From NCBI GenBank assembly GCA_030141605.1, contig JAQGDQ010000331.1, positions 1 to 64,000 on the forward strand: a stretch of 64,000 nucleotides of DNA, written 5' to 3'. The DNA comes from Tubiluchus corallicola (lineage: Eukaryota; Animalia; Priapulida). The notes under the pieces are model-generated. The model was not told the origin of the DNA, did no database searches, and saw nothing but the letters and a program-made list of their open reading frames with translations. Positions 41,156 to 64,000 of the stretch are shown here, piece by piece; the stretch's first letter is position 1, and each line of letters starts with the position of its first letter. The position numbers and the translations under genes are program-made.

Positions 41156-41196
<41 letters not shown>

Positions 41197-44100
41197 CATA
41201 TATATATATATATACACACACAATCCCATCATTGTTATTCCAGATGCACCAAAGTTGGGCATCCGACAAGCACATCAAAATATGTCCGCATCATTCCAGA
41301 CTAGCACCATTCCATAGGGGCAGAAAGCCAAGTTGATATTAAATAAGAAAGAACAAATCTGTTTTTCCAGAACGCCCCAAAACGTGTAAAGATCTTCCAA
41401 AATGCTTAAGGATTTGTTAAACTTATCTATGAATAACATTGCAACCAGTTACAGCATTTTGATAAAACTTGCACTATTGCATAATGGACATATTTTATGA
41501 ATTTTATTTCTTTCAGAGAAGGTCACAGGAATGAATGGAATGGAGAAGATGAAGGAAAGCTTGTACATATAAAGTTTGCTTTTGTGTGAGCATTAAAACT
41601 TTCCTTAGGTTTTTGCATAGTACTTAGAATGCTTAGAAGTGTTAAATATAGATTTATAATGACACTGTGTATAGCCTAAATTGCTACTTTGTTATTTTAC
41701 TTCCATTACCTATGTCAGTTATTAATTGTGTTTTTTCAGATTTACCGCATTTACTGGAAAGTTTTCGTATAACACGGATGTCGATGCAGATACTGTGTCA
41801 GATGCAGTAGCCAGGGAGGAGTGGAATGGTGCATATTTTGACCGACTGAGAAAGTTCAAGTAATTTGCACTTCTTAGTAAGGTTTCAAAGCTCTTTCAAG
41901 ATATCATACATCAGGGGAATTTTGGATGTTAGTAACAGACAGATCAGTTCTTTGTTAGACCCAAAAGACTATGTGTTAAATGCAAGGCATACACATGAAA
42001 ACTTTTACAGATTAGATTAGATTTATTATATTCAATGCCAATGTGTACATGTACATACAGAACAATATGTAACATACAAAGCTTATGAATCATCAGCACA
42101 CAAAAACACATCAACTCAGTACTATAAGAAAACTTGTGCACTGTTAACTTAATAAATGGCATGAATCAACAAAACAAACAAACATCCTTGACAAAGTATG
42201 GCCACACTTTGTCAGTATTAGTGAAAACTGTGGTAGACATGAACAATGGAAAATGCTGTTAGGCAATATTACTATAGCAAGAAATTGGTGAGAAATACCT
42301 AACAAAACAGTATTAGGGCTTACAGTATTAGGGATCTTGCATATTGTCTAATGTATGAATAGCAAAGGTCGCTATTGTTAGTTTTTTGTGTAATTAGTTT
42401 TGTCTTTTTTATTGTATCATTGTATCTTGTATTATTGTTTGCATTAATAATAATATATAGGCAAATGTGTCTTTAATTAGCTAAGACAAATGTTTTCTGG
42501 GTTTTGTTGCTGAGCACAATACTAGCTGCTTTTGTTCTTTTTGTGAATACTAGTGAAAACAATAGCAGGTATGAACAATGGGGAATGCTATTAGGTAGTA
42601 TTACTATAGCAAGTGAACCTGAATTGAATCTGTGTCTACGTGGTGTCCGTGAAAGAGGATCTGGAGTACAAAGCTGGAGAAAATTTGAGCGCTACATTGT
42701 TAGCACTGGTTATGCCGAGGTGGGTGTTACATTTGTTGTTTTCCTGGGAACTTTTACTTTTATTGTTTTTTATATTTTACATTTTTGATAGAGCGATTTC
42801 AAGGCTCTATCTTAATCAATATAGAACAGTAATTTTCAAGATTTTGAATAGAAAATCTATAGTTATGATTCCTGCAAGTTTGTAACATTACCTGTTGCTT
42901 AGGAAATATTTATTTTTCTTTAATTTAGTACGCAGTTACTGGTTCATGATGCACTCGAAAAAGGTGATGTCCAGTATTGAATATTAATGTATAAACTTTT
43001 ATTAACTGTAGGATGGGTGTGTGTTTTCTATAACTGCAGCTTGCATTCCTGGAGTTGTTTCTCAGTAAGTCGAAATTAATTGTTATTGTTTTGAGCAACT
43101 ATTGTTGTAATCCTATTTTTGATTTGCATCGAAACTCTGATCTACATTAGTGTATGTAAATTTTGTCACTTTACATTTTTGCTTAGTCTTTTACCATTTC
43201 ATTTAATATTTATAAATTTAGCACTTTTTTCTAAGTCACTTTGCATAAAAGTTTTTAGCACAATTTATTGATTTTTTTTATCTATACTTTTTTACATAAA
43301 GTTCTGCACTGTCTTGGTATGTGTAATGCCCATCATGGAGTGTTTTATTAAATTTTGCAACCTTCTTTATTTTAGCTACGTATGTGGCTATGTTGTGTTA
43401 CCCAGTGGACAGTTATGTCCTCTCAAGACCACGGATTTACATCTATCAGTTCTTGGAGAGTTGACCGCCATACCAGATAAATTTACTTTCAACACAATTG
43501 CGGGTCCAGGTTAGAACAAGATTTTGTTTAATGTTCATGATTAAGAAGAATGTCTTTATTTTCGTGTCTGTTACAACCACTTTTAATAATGTTGCATTTA
43601 TTATAAATTTCAGGAAGAAGAATTTTTACTATTGAAGTTGAGAAAAAACTTCAGCAAGTTCTATATACTGGAGACAGATGGAATGTTAAACTTATTGAAC
43701 ATCTTACTAATATTACTGTAAATGGTGTAAAAGGATGGGGTGTTACTGAATACTTATACAGGTAATCATTATGATTTACCCCAACAATTTTTTTGTGCAT
43801 GCAGCTTTAGAAATCAAGTTTACATGTTACCACCAATCACTAGCATCAAATTCATGCTCAAATAGTAACAATTGAGTATAAGTATATATGCATCTGCTAC
43901 ACATTTTGAAAAATGTTGGTCTTTATTGGAAAACCATCTGCGAATTGTAAATAATAAAATTCTACAAAACTTGCTTCCTTCGCCCGATATTGATTTTGCT
44001 ACTTTGTTAGTGTTTATAACTGCATTTTTTGTTTAAAACTCTAAATTTGCTGCTGGGCTATAAATTGTAATAAGTTGGAGAGGCAGTAGTTGTAGTGATA

Positions 44101-47100
44101 AGTTCTTTGTTGGTTTATAAAAGGTACTGTGTTTATAGTTATTTTGTGTATTTCCGTGTAGAAACGAAGAAGATTGTTCCGTACTTATACAGAAATCGGT
44201 ACCAATGCTGACTGAACCAGGTACATTTATCGAAAGTAAATTTTGATGTAGCAAATCTTTGTCATAAATAGATAAAATTAATTAGCCTAAAATAAGTCTT
44301 TGCCGTGATGGGACTTCAACTCTGTGTCGGACTTGACAAATTGGTTTCTGAAAAACATATATCTCTGAACTTTTGAAGTTTAGATCTTTACAAACTGTGC
44401 AAGCAGGTGGTGAATTGGGTAGCTCGGCTATTAAAATCAATAATTAAAAAACGTTAATTAAGTGGAAAAAATTGTTCTGGCTCGAAATCGCGTTGCATTA
44501 TGCAAGAATCTAAATCACTCGGCTATTGAATCTTCACATGTGCAGTTTTTAAATTTAATAAAACGGAGTGATTTCATGTGTATGTCGTAATTTGGTATTT
44601 GGTTGGTTTCGTGAAATTCTCAATAATTTGGCATTTATGCAGTAGTTCATGATCTGATTGTAATGTTGTTGTAGTTCACGGCTGAATTTAGTGAGACGTG
44701 TGTAATTGATAAATCATGTTTCAATGATGTTCATAATCTGTGGTAATTAACAAACTAGCAAAGCCCTTTTAAAATTTTTATGTTGAAGGTATGGTTGGAC
44801 CTGCTTTAGATGGAAATTACAATATGTGTATTATCTTCATTTGTTGTCATTGTTATCATCGTCATCACCATTGTTATCGTAGTCACTGTTACTGTTGTCA
44901 TTATCGTCATCATCATCACTACATTCCTTATTATATTCTCTTATAATGTAACTAACAGAGACATTTAAACAAACAACAGACAGTAGAAAAAGCAATAACT
45001 GCAATTAAATTTCATAATTCAGCCTAATGAATTTACTGTCACGTGTTTTCTCTCTGAGAGTAAACTCGCAAGTGTGAAAGATTTTACGAGTTACTGTTGA
45101 CAAGTTTTTGCAAACTCTCGGACAGTTGTACGCTTGTTAGTCTAGTCCCATTTTCAGAAAATTATAACCCCAGAGGCATTTTTTTCTAAAAGTTGGCAAC
45201 ATAGCCAGTCTTATCAATTTGATTGTGCTGAATCCGAAAACGTGAAAAACAAAATGGCCGCCAAGTTTTTGCACATACAATGTAAATTAAGATAACTTTT
45301 AAGAAAATTAATATTAAGAAGGCAATATGACATCATAGCAGGACCCAAGGAACACATTTGTGTAATTTTCATTTCAAAAATGACTACTGTTTTCAAAATG
45401 ATAACCAAATAATGTCAATCTTGCAGTTACATTTACAATTTCATTATAAGATTCATTATACTAATGAGAAACAATCAACTAGATCTTCTTGCATCCAGAA
45501 AGCTGCTACTAGCTCCAAATACTGTAAAGTGATTCAAACAGTCCAGTAAGTAAAAAAAATGGCTGACAGGATCCCTACATAGCAGAATGGTGAAAAACTT
45601 GATCTTTTCGCTTAAAAAACCTTGCACAACGTTAAAACCTATCAAGGTGATTAATTTTGGATATGAGGCCAATTGAACATCATCCAACATAGCTGTTATT
45701 TTCAAAATGGCTGACAAGATTGATACCTGTAGTTGCTAATTTTGAAAACCATATCTTAACCATTGGCGCAGTTAACATGACAACTTTTGTGTCAAAATAT
45801 AGGTTAGGTTTTCTATTTCAAGAAATCAATTTCTGATGTCCAGAAATGCCTATAACATCACCTCAGTTAAGATTTCAAGATGGCTGCAAAAATACTTGTA
45901 GCCGCTTGTTAATGTATTTGCTGTGTTGCCCAACATAAGGTAAATAGGATGATAATATTAGTATCTATATGTAGGCTTTAAAGGTCAAGGATATAAGGCA
46001 GTACCAATATGACCAACATTTTCAAAATGGCCAAAAAGGTAGCTATTGCTAGCTTATAAAAACCATATCTTAAGCTGTATGAAAATGGGAATACTGAAAA
46101 ACTGCTCTGTAAGCAATCCTTGCCGATACTGTTTGCGGTCAGACGGTTTTTATGGAAAGAGAAAAAAAGATATAAGTGATAAGAAATAACTTTATTCAGT
46201 AAGCCAAATTTGCCAAATTTAAAAGCAGGTCAGGAGTTTCCCTTGCCAGAGACTGAGTGCGAGCTAGTCAGAGAGTTTACTGAATGACTGCCAGTGATTT
46301 ACTAAATGTGTCAACTTTTTTGTTATATTTTTTAACAGCTAACATTTCTCTGATTCAGGAAGCTTTTTTAATTAGGTGATATTTCTGGTGTGCCAGCTGG
46401 TACCAACAATTACTAGATCAGTATCCTAGTTGTAAGCTTAGTGTCAGATCCAACAAGGAATAAGGAAAATATACTTGTCGACAAAAAAAATTCAATAACC
46501 CTATTAACAGCTAAAACCTATACGGTCGTCATTTTTGAAATAAAAATTATAGAAAAATGTATTCCTGACTGCCCTGGAATAGATGTCATAATGGCTTTTT
46601 AATGTTAATTTTCTGGAAATTTCTTTTTATTTATGTTAGTTGTGCAAAAACTTGGCCGCAAATTTTGTTTTTTCATTTTTAATCCCTTTCCACTAATTTT
46701 TCCAGCTAGCAATAGGTTTTTTGGATTCAGCAGTGTCAAATTAAAAAGATTGGCTATGTTGTTCACTTTTAGAAAAAGCATCTCTAGAGACTTATAAAAG
46801 CTCCTTTTTCAGGATTTGGGCCTAGACTATGTGAGTTACATACAGTCTATTACAAGTTTACTTATCGAGAAAACTCCCTAGTCTGTGACTTGTCATTAGC
46901 CTTAATTTTCGTAGACAACTGCTCCTTCCCTAAGTATCGTGTACGTTGTTACTTGTCGGTACTGACTGTAGGCTTAATTTCAGATGTGGCAGACAATACT
47001 CTTTACACACTTCCTTTCACTGATCTTGCATGTGGAGCTTCTAAACTTGTGGGTGGAAAGGGAACCCAACTGTCTCTGCTTTCACAACTCAAACAAAAGG

Positions 47101-50100
47101 TGATTCTCTAAAAAAATTATGAAACTTTACCCTATATGCTTATTAGCAAATTTTTGCTTCCGACGATATAGCCCAATCATTTTTTCAGCAGAAATTTTTC
47201 AATCCTATTTTATCATAGCTATAACTGCATTATCACTGTAGTAACTGATGCATAACGGATATCGCTGCATGGTTAATTTAATAAATTTGTTATTCATTGT
47301 TGTTAGAATGTCTGCCATGCAAAAACATATGAATGAGAAGAAAATAAGTCTCGTGTAAGGAATAAATTGTTGTGCGTGCAATAAAATATCTGCTAACATT
47401 ATTAATAATTATTTTGGAACAGCAAAGAATTTGTTCATAAGAGACACATTAGTAATGTTTTAGAGTCATTGAAACAGATGTACTAGCCCCACCTTCCTTC
47501 CTGTATATGCAGCAAAATAATATCATGTTGACAAAAGGTGTAACAGTAGGACAGAGTTTATAATGCTTATTGATGAACAAAGTCACAAAAAGGAGGTATA
47601 AAGAGCTCTGCATACTGCTGATATTATAGTCAACTTACAGAATAAAGTATTATAAAAACAGTGCAAAATTATTTGCTACTTGACAGACTCATTTTTGGAA
47701 TAAGGTAAAAATTAGATTAAGCCGTCTACACTACTACACGATGTACAATGAAACAATTTTGTAACTAAAAGGAGAGCAGTATGCTTTGGGTAACACCATT
47801 TTTGGAGGTTGGCATTTTGAACTAGTGCACTGAAACAGTTGATTCTACCTGAGACAAATAGCCTATAAATCTGGTCACCAGGAGCAATATAAAATCGCGA
47901 AGTATGCTCTTCGGAAATCAATCAAGTCTGCCAAACATGATTTTAAAAACAAATTGGCGCAAGACTTTTTGTCTAATGACACTCGAGAACTTTGGCAAGG
48001 ACTTAATAAAATTATGAATTACAAACCAAAATCAAAACATATTAACTTAGACGACCCAACTTTACCGGATAAATTGAATAATTTTTATAGTCGTTTTGAT
48101 AAAGAAACGGGACCATTATTAAATTATTTGAATAGGTCCACTTGCAATAACACTCCATCTCTTGTTATACAAGAAAATGATGTGCGGCGATAGTTTGCCA
48201 AACTGAAAATTAAAAAATCAGCAGGACCGGATCGTATAACACCGTGGCACGTGCGATACTGCTCAGATCAACCTTGCCTATATTTTTACTCATAATTATA
48301 ATTGGTCTTTAAGCATTTGTAAATTCCCTATACAGTTTAAGCAATCTATCATTATTCCTATGCCAAAGAGAAACCCAATTACTACACTTAATGACTATAG
48401 ACCTGTGGCTTTAACATCAGTGTTAAGCAAAACACTAGAACGTTTGATCTTACATTTCCTGAAATCTGTTGTTTCACCATTTTTGGACCCATTTTAATTT
48501 TCATATCGTGCTAATCGTCCCACAGATGATGCTGTAGGGCTTGTTGTTCATGATGTACTAATGGACCTTGATAAACGTAATTGTTATTCCAGAATCCTTT
48601 TTGTTGATTTCAGTTCAGCTTTGTCACACATCCTGCAACTAAAATTGTAGTATAAAATGACGGAACTTAACATACTTGACTGGCTGTGTAATGGAAACAC
48701 TACCATTTTTTCAACTAAGGTTGTTAATACAGGAGCTTCGCAAGGGTGTGTCCTGTCTCCAATTCTATACAAGTTTTTTATATATGACTGTGACGTATCT
48801 TCCCCAAATACTGTGATGGTAAAATTCGCTGATGATACCACACTGGCTGGCCTTATTTGCAGTAACAACGAGACTAATTATTTTCAGGAAGTTCAAAATT
48901 TAACACGATGGTGCAAACAGCATAATTTAGAACTGAATGTTTCAAAAATAAAAGAAATTATCGTAGATTTTAGAAAAGAGACTGATGGAAAAGCACCTTT
49001 GCTTATAAATAATACATCTGTACAAATTGTTAAGGATTTCAAATTTCTGGTAATAAAAATTTCGGATGATCTTAAATGAGAAGCTAATGTACTCTGTTGT
49101 GTAAAAAAGGCCCGCCAGCGTTTGTACTTTTTAAATCATTTAACAGTGCCCCTGCTGTGATGGAGAGTTTTTATCGTACAGTAATTGAAAGCGTCTTAAC
49201 AACATCCCTCACTGTTTGGTATGGTGCTACCACACAGGGAGATCGCAATGCTCTTGATCAAGTTGTTAAATGTTGTTAAACACATAGGGTGAATTTATTT
49301 CTTTGCATTTTTTTTATTTTTTCAGCACTATTTTATTATTTTATGAATTTATCTCTGCAATATATTGCAGCTGTGAAACAACACTGTTAAATTTTACAAA
49401 TCTAAAACTCTCCTGCATAACCATCTTCATCTGGAGAGGACATCACATGCAATGAAACAATCAGCTGTTGGTTTCGTCAACTGCTTTTTTTATGCTTGCT
49501 AATTCCGTCTTGATAAAATATAATTAAATGCTTTGGTTAACACTTAAGGATTTTTCTTTATTAAAGCAAAAGAATGGATGTTATACATCCACAGAACAAA
49601 GATTTCACATACGTATTTTATCTATTCCAGTTTTGTGTTCCTAAAGGATTTTGCATCACTGTTGCTGCATACAAATATCATCTAGAAGAGAATCAAGAAT
49701 TAGTGCAGTCTATTCATCAACTGCATGAGGTTGCGACGTGAGTGAATGCATTAATTATTAAAACTGTCTGTTGGAAAATCCCTTAAAAATTTTAATCAAT
49801 TTTCACTGTAAATTTACTGCAAATTTTAATTCTTGTTGCTAATTTTTTGTTAAATGTTTGCTTAAGAAAACAAAGATGTGGTAATTTGAACGAGATGTCA
49901 AAGAAAGTGTCAGAAATGTTTCAACAGAGCAGTATGAGCAATGTTTTAAAAGATGCTCTTGCATTAGAAATGGAGCAACAGTTTGGTGAAAATTGGAATC
50001 ACTTAAAAGTCGCTGTGAGATCCTCTGCTGTAGGTAAGATATCATCGTTATGCATAGCTCAAAATGATTCATGACCTAAAATATTATAAGGATGAGAACA

Positions 50101-53100
50101 TTTTAAGAATGATGTACATTAAAGAATGACTCTCTCGAAAGTTTAAGTTTGTTCATTCTTCATTGTAGCATGCTCATCTATACATACTCATCTATACATT
50201 AGCACTCAGGTGATTAAAACCTTGTTACTGCTTTAGGAGAAGATAGTGCAGAAGCATCTTTTGCTGGGCAAATGGAAACATTTCTCGGTATTATCGGTTT
50301 AGACAAGGTAATTAAAATTAAAGCCTAAATGATACTGAGAGTTTTTTATGTTTCAGTGAACAACTTTAATTTATTTTGTTATTATTGTTTTCATCACCGT
50401 CATTGTCTTCTGCTACTCGTCTTAGTTGCTTAACATTAATGTGTGTCTGAGGGAGCTGGGTACCAAACTGGAAAGTTTATATGGAAATAGTCATGCTTAA
50501 ATAGTCAATTCATTTGCCTATTTGATAGCTACTCAGCAGTGTTTAAAAAACATTCTTAGACAAGATTGTTTACAAAATCGCATATACACTATGGGACTCA
50601 CAAAATGAAAAAATTAATTGTCATCTAGATTTCAACTTTTTTTTCAGATATGTAATGCTGTTATTAAGTGTTGGGCATCCCAATTTGCATTTCCTGCAGT
50701 AGAATATAGAAGGTACGTTATTAATTATTTGTTGTCTAGAACAAACTGAAAGATTTGACTTTAGTTTTAATATCCCTTGGAATATTAATAATAATTTATT
50801 AAAACCATAAATACATTCCTATTATTTCCAGCAAGTACTGGTTTTTATAGGGCATGTTTATGTCTAGATTCATCATATTTACCTATATTAGTTTTTCTCA
50901 AACACTATAATTTTTTATAAACTTAGTTTCACTTAAATGTAAGGTGCTGCAAAAAATGTGTGGAAGTTTAGATCACGATGTTATAAGGAGAAAATAACAA
51001 AATCACTGAAACATGACCAAATTCGTGTTACAGATATTATTAAGGTTTTTGTATAAACACCACAAATTTTAGGCCATTCCTTTGGATTTTTTCTTCATTG
51101 ATTCAAATTTTAAAACAAGTTAAAAATAAACGCCGGAAAAAATTTCGTATGTCACTATTGTTAAAATTTATGGCAAGTGCTCCATGTATCCACCATTTCT
51201 TTTCTTTCGATAGCTGACACAGTTTCTTATTTCTTTAAGGGGCTTTGGTTCTAGCTCTCAAGAGTTTTTGGCTTTAGTTCTTCTTCATCAAATGGCTCTG
51301 TGCAGTCGTCATGTACTGTTTCTTTAAAGGGATTCCAAATACCATAATCCACGGGATAAACCCTTTCACTACGGAAGGCGATAGACTGCCGCCCGAGCTC
51401 AGCACTAAGTTCAGTTACCAAGTTCTGTTTGTTTCACTGCTACCACCATGCAAAACCATTGTAGAAAAGTTTAACAACCGTGGGATTGGGGTTGCTTTGC
51501 AACAAACAACACTAACCAGCCAATCAGCATCTGAAGCCAGGTGCATTCCGCAATACTGTACTGTACAATATATTCCCATGCAAAGTATTGGTGATGGTTT
51601 GTGAAACGTATGTTTAGTCGCTTGTTGTGCATTCTTCTAAAATGATTGCATATAATGGATTAGTAATATGACTTTTGTGAAAATTGGTTTCTAAATATAA
51701 ATAGAGGCTTATTTGTGTGGTTGTGCAGGTGGTAGTATATGTGAGTGCATGCATGTATGCGCATTGCGCATATGTGTGTGCAATGGTACAAATCAAACTA
51801 ATATTCACTATTAGTGTTTAATAATAAACGACTACTTGTTTATTTACAACATACAGTTTTAGTAACACACCACAAGAAGTTATTGTCAAATGTGCAGAAG
51901 CCAATCAGGCCCTGTTGAAAAGCAACTACTTAGTGATAAGGTTAAGGTCTGATGATTCTGGTAGCTATTGGTCCGTACATATGAATTCTGGTGCGACCCT
52001 TTCAAGAAAGGCTTGCATTTGCCCAAATATACATATATATATATATATACGCACGCACGCATGCACACACACGCACAGACACACATACACACATATATAT
52101 AGAGAGAGAAAGAGACTAAGACATACATAGTTCCACACATAGGCTACACAAACATGACAGAAAATGTCTGTTTGACACATAAAGTTCTAAGCTAGAGCTG
52201 GCATATTTTTGAGTAAACCTTAAATTCACTGTTCCATATACTCTTCACTATATAATTTTGAATTACAGTGTTGAAATATGATTACTTAAGGTCAACACAC
52301 ATTTCCTCTGCAGAACAGCCATATTGTTGCTGAAATAACTTGCAGATGCCTTTGTTGTATGCTCCTTTTATGCGATTAAAACTATAATTATAATCAGAAA
52401 ATTTGTACAACAGAGTTACACGTAGTAAAAGTTTGAGCAATATTCTGTAACTTTGCCCTGTTAAAAGCTACAGGCTTTGCATTAGACAAATGCTATAATA
52501 TCTAGCAGCTTATTTATGCACAAAGATAATAAATGGAGCTAAGTAAGATGTTCATGTGTTATTGATTATTTAAGTGTATTTATGAGCAAAATCTTTTTTT
52601 AGGGCTTTGGCTAGTTAATATATTATGTTCGATGGTATATGCCTCTATATATATATATTTATTTATTTATGTACGTAATATGTGTGGTTTATGCAGCTAC
52701 AGTTTTAACGACTGCACCATTTCGGCAATTTCTATATCATCAAACAAAAAGACTTGGTATAATGTGGTCCCATTTATTTTTCAAGTCGGGGCTGCTTAGA
52801 AGAACAGGAGAGGGGAAAAATCTCCAAAAATGGCTGTTTTGGCCCGTTTTTTTTGCAAAACTTGTACTCCTTACTTTGAGAGAACAAGAAAAGTACCAAA
52901 TGTGAAACCAATAATGATTGAGCACAATGGTGGGTGTAGTGGGCACACTGAGATTTCAAGGGAGGCCTACGGTTTCTGGCAATGTGTGCTTACTTGAAGT
53001 AATCTGCCCAATTTTTGCAAAAAAACTGCCCTTTGACCTCTAGAAAAATCGATTTCTACAATTGCTGGGGTATCTTGGAAAACAGTGAGCACACTCCCTG

Positions 53101-56100
53101 AAAGAGTAGGAAATGTTCTGTAACATATGTTCTGGAACACTTCTTGTCTTTACCTTTCAAAAAATTCCAGGCAAATGTTGTCATCACCCACCATTCTACT
53201 ATGTTACAGAGAGCAATATATATAAGTTAGCCTATTCCCAACTTAGAAGCAGTACGCAGAGACCGTGTAGACGTGTAGAATGTATGCGCATTACTGATCA
53301 GTGGTGGATGGATCTAATAGTGTTTGCCTAAGCACACAGTGGTGACATTGTGCAAAATGTTTTTGTGCACTTTATTATGCTGTTGTTAGCTGTGTTGTTG
53401 CTGTGATGTCGTCGACAGTAAATTATAATACATTCTTCTGTAGAAATCATGGTCAACCAGTTGCAGCAGACATGGGAGTTTGTATACAAGAAATGGTAAA
53501 TGCTGACAGTGCAGGTGTTTTGTTTACTAGAGATCCAGTTACTGGCAATCCTGGAATTATGACAATAAATGTATCCTATGGACTTGGAGAAGTAAGTACA
53601 CATTTACGGGTACATCAAAGAAAGCATAGCATCAGGCAAAGCAGTAAAAAAAATACAATCGTTTTTCTTGGAAAAAACACTTTTGATTCAAAACTCCAGT
53701 GTGAGCTGACTTGTCGGCATTTCCTAGCACAGTAATTTATTTCAATAATTGAAATCTAATGAAATAAGTGTAATCTAAATTTATAGGTGGAGAATGGCTT
53801 GTGAAATGCCTTTGCTAATGCGACTTAACCTTAGGTAATGGTTTTGAGTTCAAGAGTAATAAACTAGTAATTGACTTAATAACTCAATTTATTTCAAAAG
53901 GTGATCATGATTTGATATTTTGACGATTTGTGATTGTGTGTATTTTCTGATTCAAGGCTGTTGTGTCTGGGATTGTTGAGCCAGATACCATCACACTGGA
54001 GAGAAGCTTCAATAATAAACTTTCTGTAAAAGACAAAGTTGTTGGAAGCAAGAAAGCTCAACTTGTTCTTTCAGGTGAGCTATTGAAAATTTATACATAA
54101 CAAAATCTATTTATATATCCGCATTCTCTGAATTTTCCTTATAAAATTAAAACTTGTCTTAATTGTGACAGGCTTGGGTGGTATGGTATGCAAGACACTG
54201 ACTAATTATGTAATGGTTTAGCACTAAAATTCAAATTCAATTCAAATTAGTTTGAAATAACTTAACAGACAACTTTATTTAGATTTTACCTGTTTAAGCA
54301 GGATTATGCAACCTGCGCTGAAGTATACCAGGTTTTGCAATAAATGACTAACTGTAAAGCTACGTTGATATGACTTTCTATGTCAATATTTGATGGTGCA
54401 TTGGTATTTTTTATCTTAGACTCTGGTGGGATTAAAGAAGTAACTACTGCCAATGAGGCTGCTGATTGTTGTCTGAGTGATAAATTAGCCTTGCAACTAG
54501 GAGAAACTGGCATATTAGTAAATATCACCTTTATGGCTATTTTGTATGTTACCTTTACAAAAATAAAAAGTATTTTAAATAAAATACGTTAAAATTACCT
54601 TAAAATAACTTTAGTTGTCATCAGTCTTTTGTCTTATTTTACTTTATGTGAAATGTTTACTTAAATACTCTGAATACTTAAAGAGCTGGAATTTTGAGAT
54701 AATATTTTAAAACAGTGCTTGTTCACCTTAAATAAATGGTTCAATGCCCAATTTCTGAAAAGATTGCTGCCTTTCATAGTGCTTTAACAGCCCTACTTAA
54801 GTGGATCTTGTCACAATTCTTAAAACTTTGTGAGCTTGTGCTTTTTCCAAGATGAGTAATATATAATTGAAATATAATTGGAAATTTGACTTGTAATTTG
54901 AAAATTCAACTTTTCAGATTGAGCAGTCTTTCTCCGACCCTCGAGACATTGAGTTTGCCATCAAAGATGATGAGATCTATCTTCTGCAAGCTCGGCCTAT
55001 CACATCATTTAATACAGAATCTGATGATGAACTCATTCATGAATTTGATGGACCAGTTATCATGGAACAAGAAATGTTTACCACTGCTAATACTGGGTAG
55101 GAATTTAATATTTGCCTTAGTATATTATATGCTACTCAATGCTATTCTGTTGCCTTTACTTTTTCACATTTTTCCTTTGAAAATTTAACAAACTTTTACA
55201 AGATATTTTTAGAGTGCATGAACTATAAAAAATGGCTGTAAAAATGAAAGCTGAAGAACTCTCATTTCTACTGCATAATTTCGTAAATCGAAACATAATG
55301 CTGTTTCATGGCCTTGATAACGAGTTACGTTCTGGTGTGAGAGTTGCTGGATTCCGACTTGCAGAATTGTCAATTGAGCAATCAGTATGTAACGTAACAA
55401 GCTTTGTAGAGCTGTAGCTGTTTATCACTTGCTACATTAAACAAGTAATTTTGTTGAAATACATTGCTGCAGCACATATTAAAAATATTTTGCTCGCTTC
55501 TAACCTGAATGCATGTATTATTGTTTGTTTTTAGAGAAATGATGCCACAGGCAATGACTCCATTAACAGTGGACATTTTTATAGGAACACTTGGTGGAAT
55601 TGGGCAGGTAAGCAAAAAACACGTTGCAGTTCACGTAATTTGTATATTAAAATTTACTCATTTCCGTATTTATATTATTTTTGTTCATTTACTTTTTCAC
55701 TTTTGCTACTGATTAAAAGCTTTTAAGCATCAACAGCTTTGGCTACAAGAAATAATTAAAATTTATGATTTGAAAATATCAGTTTTAAGATAGAAATAAA
55801 CTAGTTGTTCGTGAAAGGAAGACAGGATGATTTGCCACATACCCCATTTTCAAGTCCAATAAAAAGTATGCATTTTAACATGATTAATACTGCAAAAGCA
55901 TTTCTGATAATTAAATAATAAGTTAAAAATTTAATTGATGGGCGAGCCCAACTATTGATGACATCACAAACTAACATTATTCTCAGCAGCAAAAATATTC
56001 TACGAGCGTGTTGCACATGTTGGTGAAAGCGAAAATTGTAGTACAGTGTTACTGTAAAATATTCAATGTGTTGTACTAAAACTAGGCAGATAGGCGGATG

Positions 56101-59100
56101 TTTTAAGATACCGCTGTGCTCACGCATGAGCTGTCGAATGTGCGTAGTTCATCAGAAACTAACACATCTGAACTGAGAAGTACAGCATCTGTTTTTTTGT
56201 AATGCGTTTCCGAAGTGCAAGCGCTAGTGCCCATCTAACTAGCAAATGGTGAAATGCATGTAACAGCGAAGAACTAGTGCCGCAAACTCGAACTTTTGTT
56301 TGTGTGGTAATAATTCTTTTACGCAAGTCATTTTTGAAAAAATAGTGTGTTCCCTTTCAATATTTTAAAGACTAGATTGTTTTGACCTACGGTTTAAGAT
56401 TGGGTCCGGTTTTGCTTGAAACAACACGTTTGAAGCGCACTGCTAGCAATGTTCATGAATGCTAGTATGAATATCAAAGTACAAACCCAGCATGTTTTAT
56501 GATACATAGTTATTTAAACCCACTAAAAAATTGATTGCTTAGTTGTAGTTGTACAGTTTTGTGGTACAGTAAATTAATCTAAACCTCAAAAATTTCACCT
56601 AGCACCATTCAGGATAACTTGTACAATATTATAATTTTTTTACATAAACTTTGAAACATTGGAAGGTGAATAAAATTTAGTTGCTAAAAATACTAAATGT
56701 TTAATACTAGGTCCAATTTTCAGTTTAGAGAAACTACAATTGTTTTGGGGATTTAAGGTTGTGGCAGTTTTAGGTCACTAGCATATCTTTGCCTTTTGAG
56801 CGGCCCATTTCTGATGTCTACTAAAACTATAATCTGTTTTATAGAGTCTGTTTATGCCTATTTGATTTTTTTTGCCTTCTTAGTCATAATTTGATTTTAA
56901 TAATGATGCGATGATTCTACATTTATGTTAAATAGCTTGAAATGCAACAGATGTCTGCATTTATGTGGCCTTGTCATATACCTCAGTATGCACCAGCACA
57001 GAGTTATCACTTCTTTATAAATGTTATATCAGTAAGTTAAAAGGTTAACTTTAAATGTTAGTTGTTTTTTGACTTATATTTTAGTGTGTTTAGTCCTTCA
57101 GCCTTGTCAGTAAACAGTTTATTCCACTGGAGTATTTCTTTTTTGTTAAGCAAATACTTTCTGCATTTTCACTGCAGTACTGGTCCAAAAGTAATTGGTC
57201 AGAAATTCAGTACTGCAGAAAAAACATATGACACTAGAATAAATGTAGAATCATCAGCATATTTAATGATGTTTATTATTTACAACGTCAAAATGTGGTG
57301 CACTTCTGCTGGTCATTAAAATCACTTATAATTTGGTTTATGGTGTTGACTTTGTTCTTGATTAGTCTAATTTGCTTTTCCCTTACAATTTGATTTTAAA
57401 ACTCAGTCGATGATTCTACATTTATGTTAAATAGCTTGAAATGCAACAGATGTCTGCATTTATGTGGCCTTGTCATATACCTCAGTATTTACCTGCACAG
57501 AGTTGCCACTTCTTTATAAATGTTATATCAGTAAGTTAAAGGTTAACTTTAAATGTTAGTTGTTCTTTAGTGTGTTTAGTCCTTCAGCCTTTTCAATAAG
57601 CGGTTTATTCCACTGGTGTATTTCTTTTTTGTCAAGCAAATACTTTTTGCATTTTCACTACAGTACTGGTCCAAAAGTAATTGGTCAAAAATTCAGTACT
57701 GCAGAAAAAAAGCATGTGGCACTAGAATAAATGTAGAATCATCACCATATTTAATGATGTTTATTATTTACAATGTCAAAGTGTGGTCCACTTCTGCTGG
57801 TCAGTAAAATCATTTTTAATTTGGTTTATGGTGTTGACTTTGTTTTTGACTAGTCTATTTTGGTTTTTCATTACAATTTCATTTTAAAACTCAGTCGATG
57901 ATTCTACATTTATGTTGAACAGCTTCAACAGCAACAGATGTCTGCATTTATGTGGCCTTGTCATATACCTATGCAAGGACTTTCTTGTAGTTGCCACTTC
58001 TTTATAAATGCTTTATCAGTAAGTCACAACTTAAGAAGTAATTGATGTACATTTTTGTGCATTTATTTTTGGTGATTTTTATTGAAAGATTTTGCCGCAG
58101 TGGCAATTTTTGTCTTAATCAAATGCCCTTCTGCTATTTTTTCAAGAATTCCTGTACTACAGTGAAAAAGCTTTAATTGTGCTGCAGTGTAAGCTTTATG
58201 ATGCTAGTATAAATGTAGAATCATCACTGTATTTGTGCTGCCTACAAAGAAAAATTTGCTTAAACTCATTTGCTATGCAGCTTTGTGATACAAAAGTGGA
58301 ATTATTACAGGTAAAGTTTTCACTTACGATTATACTTGTTTTTATGATGATTCTACATTTACATTAATTACACAGTTTCAACGGCGACGTATTTTTGGCT
58401 CTGTGTGGCCGTGCTATGTGCCTATGATTTTACCTGCTTACTGTGGCCATTTTTTTGCTAACTGCTTTCTAGTAAGTCTTACTGGTGTTTTCCAAAAAGG
58501 TAAATGTGTTTTATCCAACGTTTAAAAAACTTCAGACAAACTCATATTCTGAACATATGAAATTTTAGATCTGCAATTTTTTCTTAGAATGTTGCAAAGT
58601 TACTAAATGTTCTGTTCTTGCTATTGTTATGTGCAATTTGATTTCTGTGAAATCAGAAAATGGTAGAAGTCAGGCATTTGTTGTATATCTAGGAAAAAAT
58701 AAATTATTCCAAGCAGACATAGTTTAGAAAATTGGAAACGTCCCTACAGTGGAGTATGCAACAGCATAATTTTTTGGATAACCCCCACTGCATTCTTGCC
58801 TCTGGAGAAGTGATAATCAATGCTGTAATATCCTCCATCTTTAGATTTGAAGTTTTTTAAACGTTTTATCTTGAGAATCATACTTGCTGTGATTTGTGTT
58901 CGTTAGGTCATTTATCTGTTATTGATAAACATGCTCTTTGTGCACTCTTTTGCTTGTCTTCAGTATGTAATTGTTTTTGTCAAACGTTAAACTGCAAATT
59001 GTGCTGTTAGTTCAAATTCGTGTAAAAATCAAAGGTTCAGTCTTCACAAAGCTCTGCTTTCTCGTTATTTAGCCCCATGCAGTGAGATTTGGGAGTTGGG

Positions 59101-62100
59101 GCTGAAACCATCTCTCTGTTCAGTCTGTCTGAAAAAGATATAGCTAGATAAAGACTAACCATATTGAGTAAATGTGTGCGTGGGTGTATGTGATTGCTTC
59201 TTTTATTGCTGTGATTAGTCATTTAATTTATTGTTGTAGAGAATGATGTTTATGATGTTTGTTTTATACATGATGCATACATGTGTTTTTGCATGGGTGT
59301 ATGTGTGTACTTTATAACAATGCGAATTTGAGAAACTTGAACAGCCCTGTTGATGGGAAATGTTACCTTTAGGAATAACTTGCATAATCAAGGGATGTGT
59401 TTCTTGCTAATTTTCCATTCTTCAATCTGTGAACAAATGTTATTTGAAAAACTTGAAAAAAATGTAAGATGCTAGGTGGCTGAGTAAGTTTCAGTCAGAA
59501 TTAAACATTAAAAGCCACTAAGACACAAAGCAAAAGCTATTTTTATATATGATTCTGGCATTTGTGTGACCAATGATTATAGTGAAGAGAGGTGATGCCA
59601 ACACCCAAGAAAAAAAGACATGCTTGTTTCAACTACAAACATCAATGTAGAATCATCACTGTTGATAAATCTGTATCGTTGTTGCACAGTCACTTATTGA
59701 TAGGGCTTTAAATAATTTTGTAGCTACGTGTAATTGCATTGACATATATTACTAGGCAATGCACGAAAAGTTTGCTGGATTTCGTATGCCAAGCTATTCA
59801 CCAATTGCCTTTGCTTCTTATAGTGGTCACTTTCTGATCAATATGCTTAATGTAAGTTCATCATAGTTATCAATTTTTATATTTGTAACCAATACTACAG
59901 GTCACCCAGATGTTTGCAGTTTTGGCATTTTGTTTGAAACTACTGTTGCATACATGATAAATGTGCCATTTTTTATAATTATTAAGGATACCATTTTACC
60001 ATTCTAATAGGCATTTTATTGTGTGATTTCTTAAGAATGGGGCTTCTGTTGTACATTACATTGTTTGTTTGTAGAAACAGCAATTCTCTGTGAAAGAGTT
60101 CGTTTGTGTTACATCACATGCATGCTTGAACGAAGAGATTTTGCGTGATCAGCAAAAATTACTTTTTGCAATTATTCTTTTTTTAGTTACGAAATTTAAT
60201 TTTTAATTTTTTCTAAATTTGACACTAAATTGAGTATATACATTGGTTTCAATATACCATGCCTTTTTTCATTAATGGACAAATAAAGTTCACTGTTTAC
60301 GCATTGACTGATTACTTCAATATTGGATTACCACTAAAAATACACAGTACACTTAAGCAGCATTCTGTTACCAGTATAATGAATTTCACTTTCATTTTTG
60401 TGTTATCAAAACTACTAATACAGATTTGTGAAGCACTGAACCTTTTCATTTGTATCTTATTCTATGTTTGAAAGTAGAAGTAGAATTTGTGAATAATAAT
60501 ATAAAAGTGATGTAAGTTATTTTTGAACTGTTCTTTATCTAACAGTATGAACTGGTCACTTCAATAAAGCTTCTTCATAAGTTCTATTTGCATTAATCAC
60601 TATTATTAACAGTTATGGTTTGTACCAATATTTATCTTTCACGGTTCTTTTTCTTGCTTTTTTGCAAATTGTTTAATTGTGCAACTGAGACAATTTTTAG
60701 AAAATATACTTTGTTAACATACTATATGATGACTTAAATTGTATTTACTTGTAAATATTAAATGTTTTATTAATGGGAGTTGCAATAATGTTAATTTTCA
60801 TACATTTTGTTACTTTAGTAAAGGAAGTTTTCTGGCTTAATGAGTAATTTAAAGGGTGCTATTGATTGAACTGCTAATGAATCACTTGTTAATGATAATA
60901 CATGAAATAACTCTTGTGTTACTTAGTAATCACTTTTACGATACTGCAAAAATTCGAAAGTAATTAAACTGAGTATGCTGCATTAATAATATTTTTTATA
61001 TCTGCAACTCATTAACAATGATACTGTATATTTGCTCACTCAAAATTCATTCGCATGTAGGGTCTGTATTATATGAATGAATATACTATGCTTGGTGCAA
61101 CAGTTGCTTCATCTCGAGTGTACATGGAAATGATATTGTTTGGCAGACGTTTGGATGACTCCATAGAGGATATCATTATACATCGTTTTAAAGACACGTA
61201 CGTGCCTTTATGGCGGAAAGTTCGATCATGGATTCATGTGATGAGTGTATGCCATATTAAATTATCATGATATATAATAAGTTTTTAAAAACTAAATAAA
61301 ATGCTAATATTGTTGGGCTGAGTTGCTTCGTTTTCTGCTTAACAGATGTTTTCAAACTATGCAATAGACATTTTAAGTACAATCTACATGAATGATTCTT
61401 TATTAAATCATTATCGGCTTTGTTAAATCCACGGTAAGTAAGTTTTAGGGCTTTTTGTAAAGCTGTCTTATTGTAAAGCTATTTTTTACTTTTTCTATAG
61501 TTGCTGGTATACAGAATTTATTCTCATCTTCTTCGTAATTTCTATTTAAATGTAAAATAATGTTTCTACTTGTTGTATAGTCACCTAAGTATTTACTGCC
61601 AGGTGAGTATTGCTCATTCCTTCGAGTAGAATAAAGTAAGAATTAAAAATAGGTGATCGATAATTACGATATATAGGAGGGTGACCGGTTGTGTTATATC
61701 AGTGACGATTCTGGTATGTATAAATATAATTTTTTGAAGTTTATTTTTAACTACATCTTTGATATGCTGATACGTCGAGTATCATATCAGGTGGATTTAA
61801 TTATCACCATCTTTATTGGCACTTGATAAGGGAAAGGGAAACCCATTGTAAGGTAAAAAGCTCACATTTTCATACGTCTACAAATGTCTTCTTATTACAG
61901 AACAAGAGAATAAAACCTTGTTGGTGCATTATCTTATCATAATGTTGATTATTAGTATTTATTAAGCTACATATAGTAAAATGTAATTGCTTTAATTATA
62001 ACACAAGATAATGTAGCATGTTGTAAGCAAAAAGTTGTCATAGTAAGTCTGTTTAAGTGACTGAACTAGACTAAATGGTTTAAGCAGATACACAATGTAA

Positions 62101-63892
62101 TAGTGAAGTTTCTTATTGTGTGCTTGCTAGAAGCTTCTTATTTAGCAAATGCTGTTATGAAACATTCGTTGTGAAAGCGGGGTTGTGTCAATAATTTTTT
62201 AATGTAATTTAATTGTTTTATTAATTATATATTAATTTAATAATTAATAATAATATAGTAAAGTTGGGAATCAGTAACCATAAAAGCATGATTTTAGTGA
62301 GCTTATTATTGTTTTGAAATTATTGTCATCTTTTATAATGATTCAGCAGTAGAATTTGGTTGAAGATCTTGATTTGTCACAGACTCCCGAAAAATTATTT
62401 GTTTTAGATAACACAGTAAAAGGATCAGATTAACTACAGAATCAAATAAAATCTTTTTATTAAAAGGAAAAGATTGATTGAATTTACAAATATGCTTTGG
62501 CTTTTTCCGAAGTATAACTGGAATTCCTTGCCACCAAATGTTACTCATCATGCTCGTTCAGTTGCTCAGAAGGATTATATCGTTGATGGAAACTAGTACG
62601 TGCATTTCTCTGATATTATTTTATTCTGAATTTTATTCAGAATCTACAAATTGTGTATATTTTGTGTAACTATAGTTGTGTAAACTCATAAGTAAATGTT
62701 TAAAATTGTTCTCAATGTTATGTTAATTATTTAATTATGGTAATATGTACCGTTCTGTAGTGATAATAGTTTTCATTCTGTAGACAATGTGGGAAACAAC
62801 TGTTCTCAGTCTTGGTTAAAGCGTTTTTCACAGTAGACAAAGAATCCAAAGTGACATCTTAAATAATTAATGCCTGTTCTATTCACTTATCTTTGGGATA
62901 ATAATGATTCTTACATTCTACCTGGTAGTGTGAAGTGAGTGAGGGCCCATGTTCACAAACCATCACTAAATTAATGATATCGTTATCAATAGTTAACTGA
63001 TGGCTTTGCGAAACTAGCCTCAGCAAACATCAGGAATTTGTTAATGGTGATTTAACTAACCAGTGAGTGTATTTGACAGAAAAACAATTCTTCGTGTACA
63101 AGAATCGTTGGAAAGAATATGTCGAATATTTCAAATAGGAACGAAAAAAGAATTCTAAGGCAACTTTCTTAATACATAAACTTCATTTCTGTAATTACTT
63201 ACCTAAAATGTTCATGTGTGTTTTAAAGGAACAGCCTAAGAGTGACTAAAGGTTTAAAAGTTTGGTAGCACTGATTACACTTCTGGTTTCTGTTTTTTTC
63301 AAAGTTATATGATTATGGACTTTCTTGCTAAAAACACCAACAACTGCTCATATTAAAATTTATTATGTATGCAACAGTAGACCATTTAAACTTTAAAGCT
63401 TCCAAAATTATTTGTAAAAATATGATGATGAGCCTAATGTAATTTGCTTTGATATTTTTTGTAAAATGAGTATTTTAAATATTCTTTTCCACTCTTGTTT
63501 TTTTGTTAACTTTTCCATAATTTTATTTTAGAGTTTACTGTAGTCATGTGTGAAATACGTATACACTATTTGCAAAATATTGCAATTTTGTTATTATAGT
63601 AGTGAATACGATAAAAATAATAGATTAGTTGCATAAGTTATTTACCTATTTGTCCTAACTAATTTATATTGTTGTTTCCTTTTAATAGCATCTAGCTATT
63701 TTTACATAGGCCATGTATGAGGGGAATAGTGATACATTGCCTATTGACACTAAGGCAGTAAGGGTATCGATGGAAATGTCTCTTTTTGGGCGCACATTAG
63801 ATGATGATGTTTCAGACCTTGTCAAGCAGCGATATAAGGCAACTTATGTACCAAAGTGGAAACAATATAAAGTATTGGTTTTTATGTATGCT
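38434..63892 (+). CDS. PEP-synthase / rifampicin phosphotransferase / PigC-like dikinase-family protein (TM segment + N-terminal beta-rich domain + PPDK_N ATP-grasp + start of substrate domain); 3' end lies beyond the window
   Basis: Phase-consistent exons: 38434-38569, 39100-39266, 39737-39826, 40241-40407, 41517-41585, 41740-41859, 42554-42719, 43012-43064, 43376-43509, 43614-43761, 44162-44220, 46984-47099, 49631-49737, 49867-50033, 50237-50307, 50648-50712, 53444-53591, 53957-54074, 54420-54517, 54918-55096, 55535-55607, then alternative clusters A and B. PPDK_N motifs: LVGGKG, VPKGFCIT, VAVRSSAVGEDSAEASFAGQMETFL, KCWASQF, MGVCIQEMV, AGVLFTRDP, YGLGEAVVSG, PRDIEFAI, YLLQARPIT, followed by TANTGEMMPQAMTPLT. 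Confidence 0.92.
40645..40966. mobile_element. hAT (Charlie-like) MITE, 322 bp
   Basis: TIRs CAGTGGTTCCCAAA / TTTGGGAACCACTG and a perfect 8-bp TSD ATTTAAAG (40637-40644 and 40967-40974). Confidence 0.92.
41141..41221. repeat. Interrupted (TA)n microsatellite
   Basis: Seen directly. Other TA/CA tracts lie near 5366-5389, 9909-9931 and 52033-52110. Confidence 0.9.
45138..46829. mobile_element. Non-autonomous DNA transposon with long TIRs (Academ-like), 1.7 kb
   Basis: About 100-bp imperfect TIRs starting TAGTCTAG(T/G)CCCA, a 3-bp TSD TGT (45135-45137 and 46830-46832), and internally repeated CAAAATGGC motifs. The superfamily call rests only on the TAG ends and 3-bp TSD. Confidence 0.7.
47800..49290 (+). 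mobile_element. Degenerate, 5'-truncated Rex1/Babar-like LINE reverse transcriptase
   Basis: Peptides LPDKLNNFYSRFD, KSAGPDRI, NDYRPVALTSV, RILFVDFSSA, GASQGCVLSPIL, VKFADDTT, WCKQHNLELNVSKIKEIIVDFRK and FYRTVIESVLT, with stops and frameshifts. Lies in an intron of the dikinase-like gene. Confidence 0.9.
51165..51400 (-). mobile_element. Tc1/mariner transposase C-terminal remnant
   Basis: Minus-strand translation YPVDYGIWNPFKETVH...EELK...*NQSPLKKIR...NGGYMEHL matches the mariner pattern NPxDYxIWxxLKxxV...GGxFEHL. Confidence 0.6.
52440..53060 (+). mobile_element. Helitron fragments (a 3' end followed by a 5' part) related to 9939-10666
   Basis: TTGATTATTTAAGTGTATTTA...AGGGCTTTGGCTAG|T (ending ~52614) mirrors 10619-10666. 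TCTATATATA...GCTACAGTTTTAACGACTGCACCATTT mirrors 9939-9990. Confidence 0.55.
56936..57031 (+). CDS. Alternative exon A1 (96 nt, phase 0-0): LEMQQMSAFMWPCHIPQYAPAQSYHFFINVIS
   Basis: AATAG|...|GTAAGT, open in the frame set by exon 55535-55607. Confidence 0.85.
57435..57530 (+). CDS. Alternative exon A2 (96 nt): LEMQQMSAFMWPCHIPQYLPAQSCHFFINVIS
   Basis: AATAG|...|GTAAGT, open frame, paralog of A1. Confidence 0.85.
57923..58018 (+). CDS. Alternative exon A3 (96 nt): LQQQQMSAFMWPCHIPMQGLSCSCHFFINALS
   Basis: AACAG|...|GTAAGT, open frame. Confidence 0.85.
58376..58471 (+). CDS. Alternative exon A4 (96 nt): FQRRRIFGSVWPCYVPMILPAYCGHFFANCFL
   Basis: CACAG|...|GTAAGT, open frame, with WPC..P and HFF.N conserved. 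Confidence 0.85.
59756..59851 (+). CDS. Alternative exon A5 (96 nt): AMHEKFAGFRMPSYSPIAFASYSGHFLINMLN
   Basis: ACTAG|...|GTAAGT, open frame. P12, P16, H25, F26 and N29 are conserved with A1-A4. Confidence 0.85.
61061..61246 (+). CDS. Alternative exon B1 (186 nt, phase 0-0): GLYYMNEYTMLGATVASSRVYMEMILFGRRLDDSIEDIIIHRFKDTYVPLWRKVRSWIHVMS
   Basis: TGTAG|...|GTATGC, open frame, homologous to B2. Confidence 0.85.
63710..63892 (+). CDS. Alternative exon B2 (183 nt, phase 0-0): AMYEGNSDTLPIDTKAVRVSMEMSLFGRTLDDDVSDLVKQRYKATYVPKWKQYKVLVFMYA
   Basis: CATAG|...|GTAGGT, open frame. Shares RVxMEMxLFGRxLDD and RxKxTYVPxW with B1. Confidence 0.85.
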
Positions 63893-64000
63893 GTAGGTAT
63901 ACATTTATTATTTTAAATGTTTTGTTTCTGCAAATTAAAGAAGTATTGAATTTGTGTTTATGATGAGGTATTTTCTTTGACTATAAACTTGCTGCTATGT

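Follow-up and report, generated by a model that had tools for sequence, protein, structure and literature searches.

Introduction

Enzymes in which alternative exons alter a substrate site include pyruvate kinase M1/M2, ketohexokinase A/C, CYP4F3A/B and the products of the UGT1A first exons, and in these the choice of exon changes which ligands or substrates a common catalytic core prefers. Tandem exon copies of one phase are known from the insect arrays of Dscam1 exon 6, 14-3-3zeta, Mhc, MRP1 and srp (PMC6071210; PMC4691838; PMC8791459). The possible mechanisms of exon exclusivity have been catalogued (PMC6071210); in Dscam1 exon 6, every later exon is preceded by a selector that is complementary to one upstream docking site (PMC6071210; PMC4691838), and this single-docking-site model leaves the repression of downstream exons to an unknown repressor (PMC6071210). 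In human ATE1, an enzyme with the mutually exclusive exons 7a and 7b, competing helices hinder the 3' splice sites, a separate long-range helix is present, and splicing is sensitive to elongation rate (PMC7797038). Here we analyse a 64,000-nucleotide (nt) stretch of the priapulid Tubiluchus corallicola (GenBank assembly GCA_030141605.1, contig JAQGDQ010000331.1, positions 1 to 64,000, forward strand; hereafter the window), which carries a gene of the family of rifampin phosphotransferase (RPH) and PigC, phosphoenolpyruvate (PEP)-utilising dikinases, with two tandem arrays of duplicated exons. Our favoured reading, in which we place rather better than even confidence, is that the exons of each array are likely used one at a time through competing intron pairing and that the swapped segments, as predicted, line the RPH/PigC-like acceptor pocket.

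Results

Two exon arrays in a PEP-utilising dikinase gene

The exons and intron elements of the gene are all given on the forward strand. Constant exon E-1 (55535..55607), with which the acceptor-binding domain starts, begins in phase 2 and ends in phase 0. It is followed by the A array of five 96-nt exons, A1 (56936..57031), A2 (57435..57530), A3 (57923..58018), A4 (58376..58471) and A5 (59756..59851), and by the B array, in which B1 (61061..61246) has 186 nt and the donor gtatgc and B2 (63710..63892) has 183 nt and the donor gtaggt. All seven are open in phase 0 behind AG acceptors, and the donor is gtaagt in 5/5 A exons; the five A and two B exons with their AG/GT ends are thus where the original prediction had placed them. 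From E-1 to B2 the introns measure 1328, 403, 392, 357, 1284, 1209 and 2463 nt. Because the introns of the arrays are too long, steric exclusion is ruled out as the cause of exclusivity, and because all exon lengths are multiples of three, nonsense-mediated decay would be unable to enforce it. B2 has an alternative possible donor 4 nt further downstream; the phase-0 end is favoured because two partial homologs, P0055 and P0117, show V-S read-through there by eye. The gene exits the window after B2, just beyond which the window ends, and the B array therefore counts at least two exons. Between B1 and B2 lies an exon-like segment (61346-61434). Its acceptor is good and its donor is gtaagt, but all three frames contain stops and homologs show no match to it; it may be a poison exon or the remains of an exon.

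The gene belongs to the animal RPH/PigC-like PEP-utilising dikinases, as had been proposed from the letters alone. Using tblastn and a hidden Markov model (HMM) scan with homologs, we located its beginning near 39749, and the upstream constant exons, which encode an N-terminal region and the ATP-grasp domain, are single-copy and in order over 39749..54532 (limits approximate). Two constant exons match PF01326 in Pfam, namely 53445-53591 and E-2 (54918..55096; E=2.2e-8), the latter encoding the last part of the ATP-grasp domain (LQARPIT) with a linker; a Pfam search of four A and two B exons gave no match. As elsewhere in the family, the ATP-grasp domain precedes an acceptor domain of RPH type. 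Searched against 1.84 billion representative sequences, E-2 returned 231 matches, of which the best 150 were examined and 20 of these named. The five best are Priapulus caudatus paralogs with 63-74% identity (74% for P0011), the closest named homolog among the matches listed being P. caudatus XP_014664358.1, together with four paralogs. The named animal relatives include at least insects, crustaceans, pycnogonids, a mollusc, a nemertean, a bryozoan, a hemichordate and sharks, and a further homolog search added eight lepidopteran proteins; database names for these relatives are putative phosphoenolpyruvate synthase, rifampicin phosphotransferase-like and YvkC-like.

The C-terminal His-swivel domain (PF00391) and the catalytic Arg-Glu pair are present in homologs P0001 and P0011, the latter with a YRE motif, and the gene's own counterpart lies beyond the window. 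An AlphaFold model of P0011, the closest homolog (predicted local distance difference test 81.7, predicted template modelling score 0.81), has rifampin phosphotransferase as its best structural match (Foldseek E 7.8e-40; VIA Z 38.7, 795 residues aligned, root-mean-square deviation 12.2). Contigs of sequencing run X2 join constant exons at GT..AG boundaries (44217>46981, 47097>49629, 54517>54921 and 55095>55534), joins that rest on two contigs from one study whose RNA status is a guess and which are mostly 90-95% alike to the window. A listing of RNA data for 53900-63899 named no run, and no transcript across the arrays was seen. At 85% likeness run X2 covers no A or B exon, which is uninformative either way on exon choice, and a weak search among 96 candidates revealed no transcript-derived protein matching the B1+B2 alignment. 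Contigs of run X1, which may be the source sample, have matches in A3, in A5 and in the last part of A4. The X1 contig over A5 (58846-59986) has a depth of 47.6, compared with 8-24 in neighbouring single-copy contigs; a second copy of the A5 region elsewhere is possible, depth not being copy number.

One A and one B segment per homologous protein

The homologs were used to measure the region that the arrays encode. From 165 proteins, 84 had the motif and sufficient sequence after it, with P0010, P0164 and the internally shortened isoform P0162 left out. Counted from an invariant Glu to the Asn of an HxxxN motif, 82/84 homolog regions have a spacing of 37-56 residues (median 52), the other two being gapped; here one A exon is predicted to give 52 and two in series 84. 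The next distance, to the Phe of an FG motif, is 21-58 in homologs and would be 29-30 with one B exon and about 90 with two. Since the homologs hold one A and one B segment, as the homolog alignment confirms for the single-copy state on which the original prediction depended, the copies are alternatives rather than units of a repeat domain. Joining of several A exons in series into an expanded repeat would keep the frame, all copies being phase 0-0, and the intron elements described below do not by themselves block the joining of an earlier A exon to A5; yet no homolog region has a spacing above 56 (82 measured), each copy carries a core beta-hairpin that is needed once, and masking elements sit on the acceptors, so that we regard serial inclusion as extremely improbable. 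A partial gene duplication that repeats A, B and the following constant part was likewise considered and ruled out, tblastn and HMM searches having found no downstream constant exon between B1 and B2.

The boundary between the A and B segments is shared with P. caudatus, in which isoform X3 of the closest gene is missing the 15 residues of the A segment that directly precede this boundary; none of the three annotated isoforms of that gene swaps an A or a B exon.

Divergence and apparent preservation of the exon copies

The A exons span a wide range of divergence. A1 and A2 share 30/32 amino acids, differing only at positions 19 and 24, A3 shares 21-22/32 with these two, A4 shares 10-11/32 with A1-A3, and A5 shares 8-10/32 with the others and, taken by itself, is only weakly similar to A1-A4 (tblastn of A1 against A5, E=0.47); five columns are invariant across all five. 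B1 and B2 are 36% identical, with the differences mostly within the first 18 residues. The copies most like the homologs are A5, the best match among the A exons to the corresponding segment of the closest homolog (15/32), and the start of B1, which resembles the Priapulus paralogs.

The downstream introns are 60-68% identical in 9/10 A pairs, compared with 62% for unrelated intron pairs used as a control, and despite this saturation 5/5 A exons have retained frame, length and the GTAAGT donor. In all seven old pairs (those with A4 or A5) nonsynonymous divergence (pN) is below synonymous divergence (pS), and in 5000 simulations with substitutions only, a neutral copy at the divergence of A3 and A4 retained open frame, AG and GTAAGT in 0.2%. 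By these measures the exon copies look preserved by selection, and we conclude that the arrays are real and probably functional. A2 is the youngest copy and a mosaic, its upstream intron being 91% like that of A3 and its downstream intron 94% like that of A1, and it appears from this pattern to be a recent, probably unequal-crossover product of A1 and A3. Positive selection on the A exons, which the pair A2/A3 (pN 0.20, pS 0.07) might have indicated, was rejected in view of this mosaic and of A1/A3, in which pN about equals pS.

Complementary elements on the acceptors of the A array

A 14-nt motif, GATGATTCTACATT (element F), lies over the branch and acceptor region of A1-A4, at a distance of 13-26 nt from the acceptor in A1-A3 and of 17-30 nt in A4 (F1, 56910..56923, at -26 to -13; F2, 57409..57422; F3, 57897..57910; F4, 58346..58359, at -30 to -17). 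Its exact complement (element R) lies upstream of A2-A5, at 211, 200, 194 and 1173 nt past the donors of A1-A4 (R2, 57242..57255; R3, 57730..57743; R4, 58212..58225; R5, 59644..59657). Each of A1-A4 is thereby flanked by an upstream F and a downstream complementary R, and each later exon is preceded by a selector-like R complementary to the docking-like element before the first; A1 has no preceding R, and the F position of A5 is decayed. Allowing up to two mismatches, we found eight F/R matches in the 64 kb, all eight exact, four per strand and all in the A array, compared with a chance mean of 1.0 at this threshold and 0/100 shuffles that reach eight. The label "Dscam-like", originally given for the exon copies, thus fits better than could then be known, docking- and selector-type complementary elements being present.

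All 16 F x R duplexes are stable (-20.3 to -29.9 kcal/mol), and R2-R5 (-23.4 to -27.7 kcal/mol) are the four best partners of F1 in 8.9 kb. The F1:R2 stem closes around A1 (z -4.18) and R4:F4 forms a local hairpin (z -2.86). Between the upstream introns of A4 or A5 and the others, exact runs of at least 8 nt number one or two and measure 15-19 nt; in the pairs printed these surviving runs coincide with R and F, and A1/A5, the pair that shares no element, has none. A local, G+C-richer hairpin stands just before R2 (57166-57225) and just before R3 (57652-57712), and may present these selectors. An Rfam search of 53000-64000 gave no match.

Pairing of R with F would, we infer, mask acceptors, much as the helices of ATE1 obstruct its 3' splice sites (PMC7797038). 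R lying over F would hide the branch and acceptor region, and any R could mask any F. Before R5 is transcribed, or if R5 is hidden, four acceptors would face three masks, leaving exactly one of A1-A4 free. As a relay in time, each acceptor would remain accessible while about 200 nt are transcribed (some 1170 nt in the case of A4), until the next R is made; once R5 has been made, all four F could be masked and A5 would be the default. The F-exon-R unit would duplicate intact, in keeping with the origin model of exon arrays of Ivanov and Pervouchine (PMC6071210), in which an exon is duplicated together with stem arms.

A crude pairing model, with 143 nested combinations of 16 helices and a rough loop penalty, exposes only A5 in 14/14 fully paired states, and three-helix states can leave one of A1-A4 free. 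Several points weigh against exclusive use of all five A exons. At equilibrium the model would expose A5 only, and A1-A4 may be rare; F and R alone do not prevent an A1-A4 exon from joining A5; and the conservation of the elements is that between paralogous copies within the array. The free 5x2 combination of the original prediction is weakened because the model predicts a strong bias towards A5.

The same result feeds an alternative in which A1-A4, perhaps together with B2, stay unused: selection would have favoured F:R stems that hide duplicated exons, and A5+B1 would be the only form of appreciable abundance. The 14 fully paired states, the homolog-like sequence of A5 and of the start of B1, and the youth of A2 (94% flanking identity with A1) suit this explanation; A3 and A4 have nevertheless retained frame, length and perfect donors between saturated introns, and loss of an acceptor would have been simpler than upkeep of an acceptor plus its mask. 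We consider silent copies unlikely.

A predicted long-range helix around B1

A second set of complementary sequences surrounds the B array. D (59940..59962) and the selector-like Y (63358..63380), 330 nt upstream of B2, are the 5' and 3' arms of a 23-bp helix with B1 between them. The pair occurs nowhere else in the window and has -33.5 kcal/mol, compared with -24.6 for the best control in six other blocks. Formation of D:Y would loop out B1 and select B2; without it the nearer B1 would be used. Against this role speaks the finding that perfect helices of greater strength than D:Y occur in 2/6 control blocks of the window, and because of these two blocks the case for D:Y rests on its position. 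A blocker of B2 joining after B1 may lie beyond the window.

An 11-nt complement of D, X (58754..58764), would loop out A5 and is the only candidate blocker of the joining of A1-A4 to A5. Its 11-bp helix with D is weak (-19.3 kcal/mol) and within background, which counts against a complete block in the A array. The complementarity of X and of Y is to one shared part of D, which speaks for a version in which the exons are mutually exclusive and the two arrays coupled: D would pair either with X, so that A5 is looped out and A1-A4 go with B1, or, when A5 has been chosen and only then, with Y, so that B1 is looped out, giving about six isoforms rather than ten. X:D would then supply the missing block on A5, and an exact 11-nt partner occurs at only 24/500 control sites, none as stable as -15.4. 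The energy of X:D nevertheless falls inside the range of the best chance partners of D (-17 to -24.6 kcal/mol), and X is enclosed by another, unique 20-bp inverted repeat in the A4-A5 intron (arms 58517-58536 and 58846-58865). Such coupling is in our judgement distinctly unlikely.

The abundance of inverted repeats in the window, together with the 91-94% identity of the A1 and A2 units to their neighbours, might also be put down to an assembly duplication of the A1/A2 part, or to F/R and D/Y being terminal repeats of transposons with no splicing role. The unit differences of 6-9% are however larger than those shown by the X1 contig over A3 (6 in 461 nt), the F/R and D/Y motifs are nowhere else in the 64 kb, the repeat ends are perfect while the interiors are saturated, no target-site duplication flanking D/Y was found by eye, and A3-A5 and B1/B2 would be left unexplained; we hold this explanation to be very improbable. 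Repeated DNA of other kinds is present in the gene. An intron holds, at about 47850-49270, what we take, by eye and from its motif, to be a degenerate non-LTR retrotransposon-like reverse transcriptase fragment, which is multi-copy in run X1, and the intron between E-1 and A1 contains a very high-copy repeat (about 55800-56420; X1 summed depth in thousands). For one constant N-terminal exon, the 5' part (42540-42613) has a partial copy further upstream (42208-42288), 81% identical over 74 nt. This copy is open in the frame of the exon, with a possible donor at 42288, but at 67 nt it is not frame-compatible with the real exon of about 167 nt.

The segments encoded by the arrays and the acceptor pocket

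In RPH-Lm, residues P356, A357, M359, V368 and L387 cradle rifampin, Q336 and Y351 form hydrogen bonds with it, and L478, F479, M673 and T354 also contact it; substitutions of V368 raise the Km six- to eightfold (PMC4844700). As HMMER alignments to Protein Data Bank (PDB) sequences ended at the end of the ATP-grasp domain, we used two profile-profile alignments, with RPH residue numbering checked on P0164. In both, V368 aligns to L495 of P0011, which is A position 28 (confidence 7 of 9 in one), and L387 aligns to F525, the Phe of the FG motif, in B. Position 28 is Ile in the A exons except in A4, where it is Ala; position 19, to which M359 is assigned in one alignment, is Ala, Leu, Gly, Leu and Phe in A1-A5. 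In the P0011 model, the A segment consists of a poorly ordered loop and a beta-hairpin, and hairpin 486-496 would favour the placement of M359 at position 19. Relative to RPH, the A exon encodes an insertion of about 22 residues before the pocket hairpin, partly disordered in the model, and an insertion of similar length is found in the PigC-like protein L006. Docking contacts of HapC (S385, Q386, H387, K418 and F419; PMC13534948) would fall in A and B, which is only a lead, the positions having been counted along L006 rather than the HapC sequence.

Other observations count against a pocket role or narrow it. The mapping of L387 has low confidence (2-3 of 9), and B1 and B2 alike have Phe at the position equivalent to it; P356, A357 and M359 are placed at A positions 16-19 (confidence 1-3 of 9) by one alignment and at the end of E-1 by the other; the structure prediction covers the Priapulus homolog P0011 rather than the gene's own protein; and no known substrate for any animal family member was found in the literature searched. 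The equivalents of Q336/Q337, Y351 and T354 are in constant exons, and those of L478, F479, R666, E667 and M673 are beyond the window. Of the original proposal that the variable exons build the acceptor pocket, the location in the acceptor-binding domain stands, by way of the V368 and L387 equivalents, while several pocket residues turn out to be constant or encoded further downstream. On these alignments, the pocket assignment would be good for A and moderate for B.

P. caudatus has at least five paralogs of the family (P0011-P0015) with strongly divergent A segments, a gene-level diversification of the same region.

Discussion

Mutual exclusion, free 5x2 combination and a detoxifying role were proposed for this gene, and each of them is inferred; detoxification is an analogy to RPH and not a result. 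If one exon of each array is used at a time, the main form would probably be A5+B1, and minor forms would combine the same ATP-grasp and phospho-His machinery with a different pocket hairpin and cap loop, giving a different or wider acceptor preference. The acceptors would probably be hydrophobic small molecules, by analogy with RPH and PigC/HapC, which is the least supported step. We tentatively entertain a bolder version, which we think may well not hold: a self-scaling "musical-chairs" switch, in which each copy brings an acceptor mask and a masking strand and the exons number one more than the masks, would drive two adjacent, possibly coupled pocket arrays, and a single gene would thereby supply a non-arthropod animal with a range of small-molecule kinases acting on compounds from sediment or microbes. 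Such an array would stay mutually exclusive however often it expanded.

In the literature searched we found no functional paper on animal members of this dikinase family and no description of alternative exons in the RPH/PigC-like family, one of which could be held by subscription journals or by supplements such as catalogues of predicted mutually exclusive exons. If the favoured reading is true, control of multi-exon arrays by RNA pairing extends beyond the insect and vertebrate cases considered here to a priapulid gene, and a mask on every acceptor could supply the repression of downstream exons. The gene would then also offer naturally occurring pocket variants of an enzyme family widespread among animals, pointing to residues that set substrate range. 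The array, of about 8 kb with identical 14-nt elements, is small enough for a direct minigene test.

The splicing-control elements are new relative to the original prediction, and the system they form is a variant of docking/selector and ATE1-type pairing. Like the insect arrays, it consists of tandem copies of one phase, with complementary elements arranged as in Dscam1 exon 6 and, as in the duplication model, an origin by copying an exon together with its stem arms (PMC6071210; PMC4691838; PMC8791459). In Dscam exon 6, however, selectors compete for one docking site, whereas here there are four exact docking-like copies, F1-F4, each on its exon's own acceptor, so that every selector could mask any acceptor. 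The arrays are also small (five and at least two exons) and belong to an enzyme of a priapulid, unlike the insect systems, with the pairing here predicted from the sequence. With ATE1 the gene shares an enzyme product, mutually exclusive exons (here as proposed), competing helices at 3' splice sites, a separate long-range helix and, as we propose, sensitivity to elongation rate; ATE1 has two such exons, compared with five plus two and identical repeated elements here (PMC7797038).

At the protein level, the gene has the ATP-grasp domain followed by the acceptor-binding domain of RPH-Lm (PDB 5HV1/5FBS-5FBU; PMC4844700) and PigC/HapC (PMC13534948). It differs from them in its identity of about 25-27%, an extra N-terminal region and the insertion of about 22 residues encoded by exon A, and we take it to work like RPH and PigC without classing it as RPH proper. 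At rifamycin contacts, the homolog P0011 has Gly for Q336 and Phe for Y351, and its loop has an insertion. The P. caudatus relatives have the same domain order and vary across separate genes the region that varies here within one gene. Finally, the substrate-site exons of PKM, KHK, CYP4F3 and UGT1A are mostly pairs or alternative first exons, whereas here two adjacent internal arrays are combined with repeated acceptor masks.

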